Of a stretch of 25,327 nucleotides of DNA, positions 1 to 4,265 are shown in pieces (within the stretch, counting starts at the first letter, position 1; each line of letters begins with the position of its first letter). The notes under the pieces were generated by a model that saw only the letters and a list, made by a program, of their open reading frames with translations, was not told where the DNA came from and made no database searches. Origin of the DNA: a virus (lineage: Duplodnaviria; Heunggongvirae; Uroviricota; Caudoviricetes); IMG/VR virus record IMGVR_UViG_2671180357_000004, positions 1-25,327 of that record. One strand, 5' to 3'. Both the position numbers and the translations under genes were made by a program.

Positions 1-1
1 G

Positions 2-841
2 ATTCAGGGGGCCAGTCTAGTTCCGCATGTTTATCCACGAGATGTATCACCTATTTTAATACCAATCCCCTGCCCGGATAATCCGGAAAAATCCCTTGCC
101 ATCCAGTCTGAAATCGTTCGGATTCTGGATAAATTTACTGCACTTACCGCTGAGCTTACCGCTGAGCTTAACATGCGTAAAAAACAGTACAACTACTATC
201 GCGACCAGTTGCTGAGCTTTGAACAGGGTGAGGTTGAGTGGAAGACGTTGGGAGAAGTAGCCAAAATACAACGTGGGGCATCCCCCAGGCCAATTGTTAA
301 TTATCTTACTGAACAAGGAAATGGTATCCCATGGATTAAAATCGGAGATACTATCCCCGGCTCTAAATACATTGACAAAACCTTACAAAAAATAACTGCA
401 GAGGGTGCCCAAAAATCGCGAATCTTGAACCCCGGTGATTTCGTCATTTCTAACTCTATGAGCTTTGGCAGACCATATATTTTAAGGATAACCGGAGCTA
501 TCCATGATGGATGGGCATCAATCAGCAATTTTGGTGAAAAATTAAATGCTGATTATCTGTATCACTATCTTTCATCAAAAAAGGTGAAAAATTATTGGGA
601 AAGTAAAATCAATAGCGGGTCGGTCAGTAACTTGAATGCAGATATTATAAAAACATTACCAGTGCCATTGCCTGATAAACAGAAACAAGAGCGAATATCT
701 GCTCTGCTCGATAAATTCGACACCCTGACCAACTCCATCACCGAAGGTCTCCCGCGTGAAATCGAGTTACGCCAGAAACAATACGAGTACTATCGTGATT
801 TACTGTTCAGTTTCCCGAAACCTGAAACTGTCAGTAATTAA
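2..841 (+). CDS. hsdS: Type I restriction-modification specificity subunit HsdS, 3' portion (gene begins upstream of window); Type IC architecture
   Basis: Frame open from window edge to TAA at 839-841. Central conserved region ...SEIVRILDKFTALTAELTAELNMRKKQYNYYRDQLLSF and C-terminal conserved repeat REIELRQKQYEYYRDLLFSF are typical of HsdS; immediately followed by hsdR. Confidence 0.85.
   Translation: MQGASLVPHVYPRDVSPILIPIPCPDNPEKSLAIQSEIVRILDKFTALTAELTAELNMRKKQYNYYRDQLLSFEQGEVEWKTLGEVAKIQRGASPRPIVNYLTEQGNGIPWIKIGDTIPGSKYIDKTLQKITAEGAQKSRILNPGDFVISNSMSFGRPYILRITGAIHDGWASISNFGEKLNADYLYHYLSSKKVKNYWESKINSGSVSNLNADIIKTLPVPLPDKQKQERISALLDKFDTLTNSITEGLPREIELRQKQYEYYRDLLFSFPKPETVSN
146..169 (+). 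repeat. Tandem 12-bp in-frame repeat ACCGCTGAGCTT x2 (encodes TAEL-TAEL) in the HsdS central spacer
   Basis: Direct reading: 146-157 and 158-169 identical, in the hsdS frame. Confidence 0.9.
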
Positions 842-904
842 TTGACCATTGCTACCGATCGGGCCACCTTAACACCCGGTCAGTATATAGACTATTTTTT
901 ACAC

Positions 905-933
905 GCCGGAAGTCACCATTCCCCCCTTCCGGC
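905..933 (+). other. Inverted repeat GCCGGAAG / CTTCCGGC (8-bp stem, 13-nt loop) in the hsdS-hsdR spacer; possible regulatory hairpin
   Basis: Seen in sequence; no T-run follows and the loop is long, so function is uncertain. Confidence 0.25.
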
Positions 934-961
934 CCTTGCCAGACGGCACAAAGGATGCGCT

Positions 962-3900
962 ATGACTCATCAAACACACACTATTGCTGAATCCAATAAC
1001 TTTATCGTCCTTGATAAGTACATCAAAGCTGAGCAAACAGGCGACAGCTATCAGAGCGAATCGGACCTGGAACGTGAACTAATTCAGGACCTGCGGAATC
1101 AGGGCTATGAATTTATATCCGTAAAATCTCAGTCGGCTATGCTGTCCAATGTTCGGGAACAGCTTCAGAGCCTCAATGGTGTGGTGTTTAATGACAGCGA
1201 GTGGCGGCGTTTCACGGAGCAGTATCTGGACAACCCGAGTGATGGCATTCTGGATAAGACCCGTAAAATCCATATCGACTATATTTGCGACTTTATTTTT
1301 GATGACGGGCGTCTTGAGAACATCTATTTGATAGATAAAAAGAATCTCATGCGCAATAAAGTGCAGATTATCCAGCAGTTTGAACAGGCAGGCTCTCACG
1401 CTAACCGTTATGACGTCACGATCCTGGTTAATGGCTTGCCGCTGGTGCAAATCGAACTGAAAAAGCGCGGCGTGGCGATTCGTGAAGCGTTCAACCAGAT
1501 ACACCGTTACAGCAAAGAGAGTTTTAACAGCGAAAATTCTCTGTTTAAGTATCTGCAACTGTTTGTCATTTCTAACGGCACCGATACCCGTTATTTTGCC
1601 AACACAACAAAGCGCGATAAAAACAGTTTTGACTTCACCATGAACTGGGCGAAATCAGACAACACGCTGATTAAAGACCTCAAAGATTTTACCGCTACCT
1701 TTTTCCAGAAACATACTCTGCTGAATGTTCTGGTGAACTACAGCGTGTTTGACAGTAGTCAGACGCTACTGGTGATGCGACCGTACCAGATTGCCGCCAC
1801 CGAACGAATCTTATGGAAAATCAACAGCTCCTATAAAGCGAAAAACTGGTCTAACCCCGAAAGCGGTGGCTTTATCTGGCACACCACTGGTTCCGGTAAA
1901 ACACTGACCAGCTTTAAAGCCGCGCGTCTGGCAACAGAACTGGACTTTATTGATAAAGTCTTCTTCGTGGTCGACAGGAAAGACCTCGATTACCAGACCA
2001 TGAAGGAATATAAGCGTTTTTCGCCAGATAGTGTTAACGGCTCGGAAAATACAGCAGGTCTTAAACGAAATCTGGATAAGGACGATAACAAAATTATCGT
2101 CACCACTATTCAGAAACTTAATAACCTGATGAAAGCAGAAAGCGACCTGCCTGTATACAATCAGCAAGTGGTGTTTATATTTGATGAATGCCACCGCAGC
2201 CAGTTTGGAGAAGCGCAGAAAAACCTGAAGAAGAAATTCAAACGCTATTATCAGTTTGGTTTTACCGGCACACCTATTTTCCCGGAAAACGCCTTAGGCT
2301 CAGAAACAACCGCCAGCGTATTTGGTCGTGAATTGCATTCGTATGTAATTACCGATGCGATTCGTGACGAAAAAGTGCTCAAATTCAAGGTGGACTACAA
2401 CGATGTGCGGCCACAGTTTAAATCTTTAGAGACAGAAACCGACGAGAAAAAACTGAGTGCGGCTGAAAATCAGCAGGCGTTTCTTCATCCCATGCGTATT
2501 CAGGAAATCACGCAATATATCCTGAACAACTTCCGCCAGAAAACCCACCGTACCTTCCCAGGCTCCAAAGGCTTTAATGCCATGCTGGCAGTGAGCAGCG
2601 TGGATGCCGCGAAAGCCTATTATGCGACGTTTAAACGGTTACAAGAAGAAGCCGCTAATAAATCGGCTACCTATAAACCGCTGCGTGTTGCAACAATCTT
2701 CTCCTTTGCCGCCAATGAAGAACAAAATGCCATTGGTGAAATTTCCGATGAAACTTTTGATACCAGCGCAATGGACAGCAGTGCTAAAGAGTTTCTTGAC
2801 GCTGCAATTCGTGAGTATAACAGCTATTTTAAAACTAACTTCAGCACCGACAGTAACGGTTTTCAGAACTACTATCGTGATTTAGCCCAACGGGTTAAAA
2901 ATCAGGATATCGATCTGTTAATTGTCGTTGGGATGTTTTTAACCGGCTTCGACGCTCCAACATTGAACACGCTATTCGTCGATAAAAACTTGCGTTTTCA
3001 CGGCCTGATGCAGGCATTCTCCCGCACCAACCGCATTTATGACGCCACTAAAACCTTCGGTAATATCGTCACTTTCCGGGATCTGGAACGCTCAACTATT
3101 GATGCCATAACGCTGTTTGGTGACAAAAACACCAAAAATGTAGTGTTAGAAAAGAGTTATGCAGAGTATATGGAAGGCTTTACTGATGCTGCTACTGGTG
3201 AAGCTAAGCGCGGCTTTATGGCAGTAGTTGCAGAACTGGAACAACGGTTCCCTGACCCTGCTAGTATTGAAAGTGAAAAAGAGAAGAAAGACTTCGTTAA
3301 ACTGTTTGGCGAATACCTGCGTGCCGAGAACATCCTGCAAAACTATGATGAATTTGCCACGCTAAAAGCCCTGCAACAAATCGATCTTAGCGATCCTGTT
3401 GCGGTAGAAAAATTCAAAGCAGAACATTATGTGGATGATGAAAAGCTCGCTGAATTGCAAACAATTCGTCTCCCTGCTGATCGCAAGATTCAGGATTATC
3501 GTTCTGCCTATAACGATATTCGCGACTGGCAGCGCCGTGAGAAAGAAGCTGAGAAAAAAGAGAAATCAACCACTGACTGGGATGACGTGGTTTTTGAGGT
3601 TGATTTGCTGAAGTCTCAGGAAATAAACCTGGATTATATCCTTGGACTGATTTTCGAACACAACAGACAAAATAAAGGCAAGGGCGAAATGATCGCAGAG
3701 GTCAAACGCTTAATTCGTTCAAGCCTGGGGAACCGTGCTAAAGAGGGCCTGGTGGTCGATTTTATTCAGCAAACGAACCTGGATGATTTACCGGACAAAG
3801 CCAGCATCATTGACGCATTCTTTACCTTTGCTCAACGCGAACAGCAACGTGAAGCAGAGGCGTTGATTAAGGAAGAAAACCTCAATGAAGAGGCTGCAAG

Positions 3901-4078
3901 GCGCTATATTCGCACGTCTTTAAAACGCGAATATGCCACCGAAAATGGCACAGAATTAAACGAAACATTACCAAAACTTAGTCCGTTGAATCCGCAATAT
4001 AAAACGAAAAAACAGACAGTTTTCCAGAAAATCGTCTCGTTTATTGAGAAGTTTAAAGGCGTAGGTGGGCAGATATAG
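962..4078 (+). CDS. hsdR: Type I restriction enzyme R subunit (HsdR), Type IC / EcoR124-family
   Basis: 1038 codons; ATG at 962 with AAGGA upstream. N-terminus [22 protein letters not shown]; helicase motif [14 protein letters not shown], motif [14 protein letters not shown], motif [11 protein letters not shown]-terminal sequence and length match plasmid R124 HsdR as recalled from memory. Confidence 0.9.
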
Positions 4079-4265
4079 TGCATTAATCCGAACCTGATCT
4101 GGCAGATATCTGTGTAATTTGCAAATAGCTGTCAGATCAAGCCATCGTAGGGATGTCCGTATCCACTTTGAACTCAGGTACACCAACGAACTCTTTAACC
4201 TTCATCTGATAGCCAGTTCTGTCAGTCTTGATCGTTTCCTGCTTGCCCTTGATAAACTGTTCACG

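Follow-up and report, generated by a model that had tools for sequence, protein, structure and literature searches.

A restriction-modification (R-M) module directly abuts phage-like DNA near the left end of the window (the whole 25,327-nucleotide stretch analysed here, from IMG/VR record IMGVR_UViG_2671180357_000004), which raises the question of whether the two parts belong to a single replicon and, if so, how the junction between them arose. The original prediction described a Type IC module carried as cargo by a phage-plasmid. Its coordinates are right, with the hsdR stop at 4078 lying 188 bp from the convergent open reading frame (ORF) at 4266..4631 (-). Very probably, the left 4.1 kb holds the 3' part of hsdS and the hsdR of an EcoR124-family (Type IC) R-M system, cargo of an Escherichia coli SSU5-like phage-plasmid.

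The restriction genes and their replicon

The specificity gene hsdS (1..841, +) continues past the left edge of the window. The 279 C-terminal amino acids encoded at 2-841 match residues 140-404 of the EcoR124II HsdS (PDB 7bst; E = 3.5e-78), and both Pfam Methylase_S and PADLOC Specificity_I match the gene. The product comprises the end of the first target-recognition domain (TRD1), the central conserved region, TRD2 (~nt 250-706) and the C-terminal conserved region; the two conserved regions are identical to those of EcoR124II HsdS, while TRD2 is different. Two 12-bp TAEL repeats (TAELTAEL, nt 146-169) lie within the central conserved region typical of Type IC. The same TRD2 occurs in relative L005 (NZ_CP062814.1) and differs from those of L001, L003 and L004; as judged by sequence comparison, the TRDs of hsdS have kept swapping among the SSU5-like relatives. 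The hsdS stop (841) and the hsdR start (962) are separated by a 120-bp intergenic region (842..961, +) with neither an ORF nor prrC, and a spacer of only this length rules out a PrrC-linked Type IC system of the EcoprrI type. A lone weak sigma-70-like match in the spacer (869-898) is no better than chance expectation, and a promoter and terminator scan of 700-4800 returned counts no better than shuffled sequence; no regulatory element is claimed.

The restriction subunit is full-length. Although the ORF call that ends with the hsdR stop spans 842..4078 (+), the actual start is the ATG at 962, giving an hsdR of 962..4078 (+) that encodes the 1038-aa EcoR124-family restriction/translocase subunit. 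It aligns with EcoR124I HsdR (PDB 2w00) over residues 1-1038 of 1038 (2261 bits, ~98% identity, ~24 substitutions, no gaps), carries the Pfam domains HSDR_N, SWI2_SNF2/ResIII, T1R_D3-like and EcoR124_C (E = 9.7e-72), and scores 1606 bits against PADLOC REase_I. In the alignment to EcoR124I, the stretches holding the nuclease motif (D..E.K) and the DEAD-box motor motifs are the same. The methyltransferase gene hsdM sits directly upstream of hsdS, with a 4-bp overlap, in all five relatives examined; for the element studied here hsdM and the left junction, both outside the window, are presumed to follow relatives that are 98-99% identical.

By analogy with the EcoR124I family, the M2S1 methyltransferase would recognise a bipartite target set by the two HsdS TRDs, and the two TAEL repeats would specify an N6 spacer, as in EcoR124I. 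HsdR would join the M2S1 complex, translocate DNA with ATP and cut unmethylated incoming DNA. Such a predicted system, unless it is silenced, would guard both the lysogen and the phage-plasmid it carries against other phages and plasmids, and probably helps element and host to exclude these competitors. PADLOC found no further defence system adjoining the junction.

The predicted role as phage-plasmid cargo is borne out by an SSU5-like backbone with repA and SSU5 core genes, and by hsd-less relatives that carry an intact methyltransferase gene at the site. Window positions 4133-10551 are 93.9% identical to Salmonella phage SSU5, Salmonella and Enterobacter SSU5-like plasmids cover ~88-90% of the 21-kb query (4079-25327) at ~93% identity, and the complete plasmid NZ_CP122497 matches the window backbone at 99.4%. 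Backbone genes include repA (the ORF at 23479-24534 is the annotated repA of NZ_CP122497), thymidylate synthase, DHFR and Rha. The first intact backbone gene (4754..5353, -; 573 bp in the annotation of relatives) is an SSU5_094 homologue encoding a hypothetical protein with no Pfam or PADLOC match. Next to it lies the SSU5_093 homologue (5435..6250, -), a Rha-family regulator/antirepressor according to Pfam Phage_pRha and the annotations of relatives. These relatives are circular plasmids of 105-120 kb; the putative phage-plasmid label draws on collinearity with SSU5 and with relatives of ~107 kb, the structural genes being outside the window.

The abrupt change in homology at 4078-4133 and a modest rise in GC, from 0.44 to 0.48, are all that speaks for an assembly chimera of an R-M-bearing plasmid or chromosome with a phage-plasmid contig, an outcome that the original prediction had itself raised. 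The probability of such an artefact is negligible: 47 plasmids in PLSDB, each assembled independently, complete and circular, carry the identical junction, as do 53 of 5426 complete E. coli genomes, with several continents and hosts represented. The arrangement as such is therefore no product of misassembly. Nor is it unusual, since a fair number of E. coli SSU5-like plasmids share it. The accompanying generalisation, by which plasmids are the usual carriers of Type IC systems, is half right at most; an hsdR 3'-end query of the 5426 complete E. coli genomes found 860 chromosomal and 790 plasmid places.

A truncated methyltransferase gene at the junction

Position 4266 had been taken as the end of the first phage-like gene. 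The phage-type sequence is real, but its homology starts at 4133, 54 bp past the hsdR stop, and the ORF at 4266..4631 (-) is a truncated, nonsense-mutated piece of a methyltransferase gene rather than an intact gene. By blastx, 4133..4613 (-) is a pseudogene remnant with codons 1 to ~157-160 of a 561-aa SSU5_095-type DNA methyltransferase (147 of 157 amino acids identical to SSU5_095). The intact protein combines DUF4942 (residues 138-295) with a class I SAM-dependent methyltransferase domain, and the remnant is without the catalytic C-terminal 72%. A secondary lesion (TGG to TGA at 4266-4268) places a stop at W116; it is also present in NZ_CP122497, the nearest relative, in which PGAP labels the remnant a pseudogene. 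The upstream region of the gene (4614..4662, -) forms the end of a ~530-bp segment that moves together with the hsd block and has a second copy in plasmid pTB212.

On the other side, 4079..4139 (+) is native hsdR 3' flank that travels with hsdR, and a chromosomal copy in the leuX island shares it save for a 19-bp indel. The C-terminus of the window HsdR (GGQI) and this flank match the leuX-island copy and not the EcoR124/P1-like type (GGKI); in the hsdR copies of IncF plasmids and P1-like elements, homology to the window ends exactly at 4078. The hsdR flank overlaps the start of the methyltransferase homology by a 5-bp microhomology (CAGAT, 4134-4138), short enough that it could be coincidental. 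The leuX island also has a DUF4942 gene beside hsdM, which was considered and rejected as a recombination substrate (22% amino acid identity to the SSU5 methyltransferase and no nucleotide match). As originally reported, no transposase or recombinase gene was found at the junction within the window, and searches of the right junction for an IS, an inverted repeat or a short target duplication found none. There are no tRNA genes or Rfam families anywhere in the window and hence no tRNA-linked integration site. The supposed lack of an insertion scar did not hold up, however, as the truncated SSU5_095-type gene is itself the scar.

The truncation point is common to all relatives while their secondary lesions differ. 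One truncation point followed by independent later lesions, together with the recurrence of the junction across the plasmids and genomes above, argues for a single origin. Comparison with hsd-less phage-plasmids, the check that the original prediction had proposed, gives the order of events: hsd-less relatives in Escherichia, Salmonella, Klebsiella and Enterobacter keep an intact methyltransferase gene, their homology to the window begins exactly at 4133, and the hsd module is therefore gained accessory cargo and not ancestral to the whole group. The opposite history, with the module ancestral at the SSU5-like site and lost from hsd-less relatives, could draw on the breadth of the junction, found in those 47 plasmids and in two diverged E. 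coli sublineages (IncFIB type and rep_cluster_488 type). It is nonetheless very unlikely, because hsd-less elements from Salmonella (SSU5), Klebsiella, Enterobacter and E. coli have the full 561-aa gene where the window retains no more than its first ~157 codons, and an intact gene cannot descend from a truncated one.

Identity levels also speak against an ancestral module and for its gain. Relatives L006 and L003 share an hsd block that is 94.3-97.6% identical on backbones of only 73-76% identity, a disparity that indicates recent exchange rather than co-divergence and, thus, movement of the block between SSU5-like sublineages. Within one lineage, L006 and the hsd-less L009 have flanks 97-98.6% identical, and 6.7 kb (hot and hsdMSR) in L006 stands in place of 8.3 kb, which points to replacement rather than simple insertion. 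The L006 remnant is 91% identical to the methyltransferase gene of its own lineage, compared to 97-98.6% for the flanks.

Origin and circulation of the hsd block

The left side of the relatives reads humD-hot-hsdM, with humD-hot 81-87% identical to P1, RCS47 and D6. The stretch from hot to hsdM is collinear with the IncY P1-like plasmid pRHB34-C14_2 (CP057172), in the same order and orientation, at 94.5-95% identity. The hsd-less SSU5-like elements have humD and lack hot. With a P1-like left side and an hsdR 3' end of chromosomal type, the block is a mosaic in its own right, not the contribution of one donor.

A history consistent with these observations would begin with a hot-hsdM-hsdS-hsdR block entering an SSU5-like element beside humD. 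Illegitimate recombination at the 5-bp microhomology may have joined its right end to the resident SSU5_095 gene at codon ~160. By comparison with hsd-less relatives, the joining event would have deleted the catalytic 72% of the methyltransferase along with small phage genes totalling ~8 kb. The block and its scar would then have spread among diverged E. coli SSU5-like lineages through homologous recombination. The case for transfer from P1-like to SSU5-like elements, and not the reverse, is one of parsimony: hot and humD occur throughout the P1 family, and hot is found in SSU5-like elements only beside hsdM.

Delivery by a transposon or IS event, or directly from an R124-like conjugative IncF plasmid instead of a P1-like donor, is improbable, though several features invite it. 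The HsdR is ~98% identical to that of EcoR124I from IncFIV plasmid R124, many conjugative plasmids of IncF size carry hsdMSR at ~96% nucleotide identity, and the two closest relatives have copies of IS1 and IS3 at 2-5 kb to the left of hsdM. L005, L006 and pTB212, however, have this junction without those IS copies. At the right junction no IS, inverted repeat or short target duplication was found, and a search around the pTB212 cassette for repeats and insertion signatures, IS-type inverted repeats and short target duplications among them, returned only the 300-530-bp duplication of the methyltransferase fragment and the TAEL repeats. Furthermore, the homology of IncF copies breaks off at the hsdR stop and ~105 bp upstream of hsdM, whereas SSU5-like copies extend beyond both points, leftwards into a hot gene of P1 type and rightwards into a flank of chromosomal type.

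Taken further, the P1-like origin allows the hsd block and the ~530-bp methyltransferase fragment to be read as a portable defence cassette, which a single homologous crossover close to humD and a single illegitimate join would have brought from a P1-like phage-plasmid (hot-hsdMSR) into an SSU5-like one, and which is now passed among diverged SSU5-like lineages with humD and the fragment as homology arms. This reading is tentative, and we place it slightly short of an even chance. Should it be true, pTB212 would be a Campbell-type single-crossover product that could excise the cassette reversibly, and the locus would stand as a specific instance of defence genes moving between two phage-plasmid families that are unrelated but live in the same host.

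It should be kept in mind that this is an ordinary EcoR124-type system, and that the presence of R-M on the SSU5 group and the pseudogene status of the remnant (PGAP) are already known. R-M and PrrC systems have been reported on SSU5-group phage-plasmids, with PrrC on clade J (bioRxiv 10.1101/2025.09.12.675607), and R-M systems rank near the top among the genes that phage-plasmids exchange (PMC10879196). With the general phenomenon documented, the importance of this locus beyond careful annotation is small. What it offers is a tidy illustration of the way in which defence cargo may enter phage-plasmids and circulate among them, through a microhomology join, a P1-like left flank and spread between lineages, in which the import of an R-M system cost the element its own large orphan-type methyltransferase.

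Comparison with known systems

The closest elements are NZ_CP122497.1, p.CT29-P1 (NZ_CP032074.1) and pTB212 (NZ_CP033252.1), with backbones 99.0-99.4% identical over 21 kb and the same junction of hsdR with the truncated methyltransferase gene; the window TRD2 is unlike that of all three. Additionally, pTB212 differs in having three TAEL repeats and an extra intact methyltransferase gene left of hsdM, which creates a 529-bp direct repeat around hsdMSR. Salmonella phage SSU5 (NC_018843) and pHCM2-type elements are collinear from SSU5_094 rightwards (93.9% nucleotide identity over 6.4 kb), but in SSU5 the 561-aa SSU5_095 is intact, and hsd, humD and hot are all missing from the matching position.

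Among P1-like carriers of Type IC systems, pRHB34-C14_2 and phages vB_EcoM-673R5 and phi456 have hsdMSR ~95-97% identical, and pRHB34-C14_2 repeats the humD(-) hot(-) hsdM(+) S R arrangement of the SSU5-like relatives, albeit with extra DNA from humD to hot and from hot to hsdM. The hsdR of these carriers has the GGKI end with no homology past 4078, and their backbone (Punavirus) is unrelated.

EcoR124I and EcoR124II of IncFIV plasmid R124 agree with the window in HsdR length (1038 aa), sequence (~98% identity) and domain order, and in the gene order hsdS-hsdR, with hsdM upstream in the relatives of the window; EcoR124I HsdS likewise has two TAEL copies. The window HsdR ends in GGQI instead of GGKI, the flanks are unlike, and the replicon is a phage-plasmid here and a conjugative plasmid in R124. 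As TRD2 is unrelated to that of EcoR124I, the recognition sequence differs. EcoprrI and other PrrC-associated systems belong to the Type IC family too, but EcoprrI has prrC between hsdS and hsdR, the very position at which the window has none.

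The restriction genes and the SSU5-like backbone

The Type IC assignment made in the original prediction is borne out by both hsd genes in the window. The C-terminal 279 aa of hsdS enter on the plus strand from the left edge and reach a stop at 841 (ORF listing, translation and alignment to EcoR124II HsdS, PDB 7bst), and hsdR encodes 1038 aa on the same strand from the ATG at 962, its biological start within a longer ORF, to a stop at 4078. The 120-bp spacer between the hsdS stop and this ATG holds no prrC in the window. HsdR aligns without gaps to EcoR124I HsdR (PDB 2w00) over residues 1–1038 (2261 bits, ~24 substitutions, ~98% identity), with the same nuclease and DEAD-box motif stretches, and is matched by Pfam (HSDR_N, SWI2_SNF2/ResIII, T1R_D3-like and EcoR124_C) and PADLOC (REase_I, 1606 bits). 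HsdS has the same sequence as EcoR124II both in the central conserved region, with TAELTAEL (nt 146–169), and in the C-terminal one, whereas the second target-recognition domain (TRD2) of EcoR124II is unrelated to that of the window.

From its matches, the phage-like block can be identified as the backbone of an SSU5-like (pHCM2-type) phage-plasmid. Positions 4133–10551 are 93.9% identical to Salmonella phage SSU5, and 4079–25254 are 99.4% identical to NZ_CP122497.1, a complete 107-kb E. coli plasmid annotated across this stretch with repA, SbcCD-like genes, thymidylate synthase, DHFR, a Dam-like methyltransferase, RNase H and a Rha regulator. The last 73 bp (25255–25327) do not match this plasmid, which carries a LAGLIDADG homing endonuclease gene just past the equivalent of 25255, and match other SSU5-like plasmids (e.g., NZ_CP079773). 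A low-GC island (10600–11900; GC 0.39 versus ~0.50 around) contains a 340-aa HNH endonuclease ORF (10791–11813, plus strand), which resembles a free-standing homing endonuclease gene inserted between genes of the backbone; it is present in plasmid pTB212 and absent from NZ_CP122497, the closest relative, and from SSU5. Of the 158 residues of the backbone dihydrofolate reductase (13513–13989, minus strand), 6 are different in the NZ_CP122497 protein that PGAP names trimethoprim-resistant DfrA51; dfrA50/dfrA51 in phage-plasmids are reportedly the topic of one published paper (PMC12217456). Weak PADLOC LmuB/PbeC matches (best E=8e-21) to the 720-aa SbcC-like ATPase, which like the 361-aa SbcD-like metallophosphoesterase is encoded by a backbone gene (both within 18464–21695, minus strand), probably reflect general SMC-type ATPase similarity and not a Lamassu system.

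A truncated methyltransferase gene at the junction

The ORF listing agrees with the original prediction on the hsdR stop and on the end of the convergent ORF at 4266, but what was taken there for the first phage-like gene is a decaying 5' methyltransferase remnant (4133–4613, minus strand). The intact gene, SSU5_095, is the left neighbour of SSU5_094 in SSU5 and encodes a 561-aa DNA methyltransferase. By blastx, 4613 down to 4143 on the minus strand encodes its residues 1–157 at 94% identity, codon 116 (4266–4268) having changed from TGG to TGA, and homology stops abruptly at 4133. The junction is thus a scar, and reading it as unscarred would be wrong. The truncation cuts into the DUF4942 domain (residues 138–295 of the intact protein), the C-terminal SAM-dependent catalytic part is absent, and PGAP already marks the remnant as a pseudogene in NZ_CP122497. 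Because the truncation point is common to all relatives compared while the secondary lesions differ (a W116 stop in the window and NZ_CP122497, a K79 stop in p.CT29-P1, an 18-codon deletion in NZ_CP062814, and none in pTB212 or pHH107-1), the pattern suggests that the gene was truncated once and that the copies then decayed independently.

At the right join, homology to IncF-plasmid and P1-like copies of this hsdR ends exactly at the stop codon. In chromosomal copies (e.g., at leuX in NZ_CP148378) the next 35 bp also match and, beyond a 19-bp indel, the match resumes as far as 4139; the HsdR C-terminus is likewise GGQI in the window and chromosomal copies, versus GGKI in EcoR124I and the P1-like copy. 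Methyltransferase homology begins at 4133, and the overlap CAGAT (4134–4138) is found in both parental sequences, which is consistent with an illegitimate, microhomology-mediated event. The join shows neither an IS element nor an inverted repeat nor a short target duplication. In the NZ_CP148378 locus (L007, 2284–3117 and 3424–9429), a Type IC copy adjoins tRNA-Leu with a divergent DUF4942 gene before it, and in pTB212 a DUF4942-containing methyltransferase similarly precedes hsdM; the DUF4942 proteins of L007 and the methyltransferase are only 22% identical.

Probable source of the block and its spread

In hsd-bearing SSU5-like relatives, an S24-peptidase gene and a DNA polymerase III theta gene (intact in pHH107-1, frameshifted in NZ_CP122497) precede hsdM. 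These share 81–87% nucleotide identity with humD and hot of P1, RCS47 and D6, and hsd-less SSU5-like elements have humD and lack hot. The IncY P1-like plasmid pRHB34-C14_2 has the same order and orientation, humD(-) hot(-) hsdM(+) hsdS hsdR, and its hot, 355-bp hot-hsdM spacer and hsdM match the SSU5-like copies at 94.5–95% identity. The same hsd system, at ~95% identity, also occurs in the Punavirus phages vB_EcoM-673R5 and phi456. On the most economical reading, a P1-like phage-plasmid was the probable donor of the left part, and transfer would have run from it to the SSU5-like element. With a chromosomal-type hsdR 3' end, the block is a mosaic, which is the norm among Type IC genes. In the two closest relatives and in other lineages alike, the contents vary to the left of hsdM: the variable region 2–5 kb left of hsdM holds IS1A, IS3 copies and an HTH gene in NZ_CP122497 (locus L003, 1833–5108) and p.CT29-P1 (L004, 1003–4278), and metG and apbC in other lineages.

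Had the hsd genes been ancestral at this site, relatives without them would not be expected to keep the methyltransferase whole; in hsd-less SSU5-like plasmids of E. coli, Salmonella, Klebsiella and Enterobacter the gene is intact and the match to the window begins exactly at 4133. The flanks of p4_0.2 (without hsd) and pHH107-1 (with hsd) are 97–98.6% identical. Because, between humD and methyltransferase codon ~160, 8.3 kb in p4_0.2 (twelve small genes and most of the methyltransferase) are exchanged for 6.7 kb in pHH107-1 (hot and hsdMSR), the event was a replacement and not a simple insertion. The block, scar included, has also moved between SSU5-like sublineages, since between pHH107-1 and NZ_CP122497 it is 94.3–97.6% identical throughout on backbones of only 73–76%, and the pHH107-1 remnant shares only 91% identity with the methyltransferase gene of its own lineage. 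A variant in pTB212 has an intact methyltransferase gene left of hsdM and a 529-bp direct repeat flanking hsdMSR (94% over the best 300 bp; whole left copy 90% identical to window 4133–4662), the layout expected if a circular cassette-plus-remnant had recombined with an intact gene by a single crossover. Between the equivalents of SSU5_107 and SSU5_094 lies a hotspot for cargo.

Frequency, function and specificity

In PLSDB, 47 plasmids carry the exact junction (45 E. coli, one E. fergusonii, one uncultured); they are mostly of 105–120 kb, and their sources are poultry, pigs, cattle, dogs, humans and water across several continents. Among 5426 complete E. coli genomes, 53 have it too; this recurrence rules out an assembly chimera. 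With ~246 Escherichia plasmids matching the backbone query, roughly one fifth carry it. E. coli very often carries the 3' end of an EcoR124-family hsdR, with 860 chromosomal and 790 plasmid places in the complete genomes (a tally that takes in both halves of the junction query), so describing Type IC systems as typically plasmid-borne is inaccurate. The observation and most of the interpretation in the original prediction stand, while "plasmid-type" was overstated.

Given the near-identity to EcoR124I, an M2S1 complex would methylate the target and HsdR would translocate DNA by ATP hydrolysis before cleaving unmodified DNA at a distance. As phage-plasmid cargo, the system would protect both the lysogen and the element from incoming DNA, and could add post-segregational stability. 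Such an arrangement is common and has been annotated and surveyed before: RM and PrrC systems occur on clade-J SSU5-group phage-plasmids of E. coli and Shigella (bioRxiv 10.1101/2025.09.12.675607), and R-M systems are prominent among genes that phage-plasmids recently exchanged (PMC10879196). What is new is the reconstruction of the junction (truncated methyltransferase, microhomology, P1-like humD-hot flank and inter-lineage spread), an incremental advance.

The TRD pair differs in each of the five relatives compared. Window TRD2 is that of NZ_CP062814, whereas window hsdR and backbone are nearest to NZ_CP122497, which points to recombination inside hsdS. EcoR124I has two TAEL repeats and an N6 spacer, and EcoR124II three repeats and an N7 spacer; hsdS carries three copies of the 12-bp repeat in pTB212 (locus L001, 10799–10843) and two in the window and four other relatives. 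By analogy, the predicted target of the window enzyme is bipartite, with 6 bp between its halves. The differences in TRD pair and repeat number amount to continuing specificity switching among these phage-plasmids, in the classical EcoR124I/II manner.
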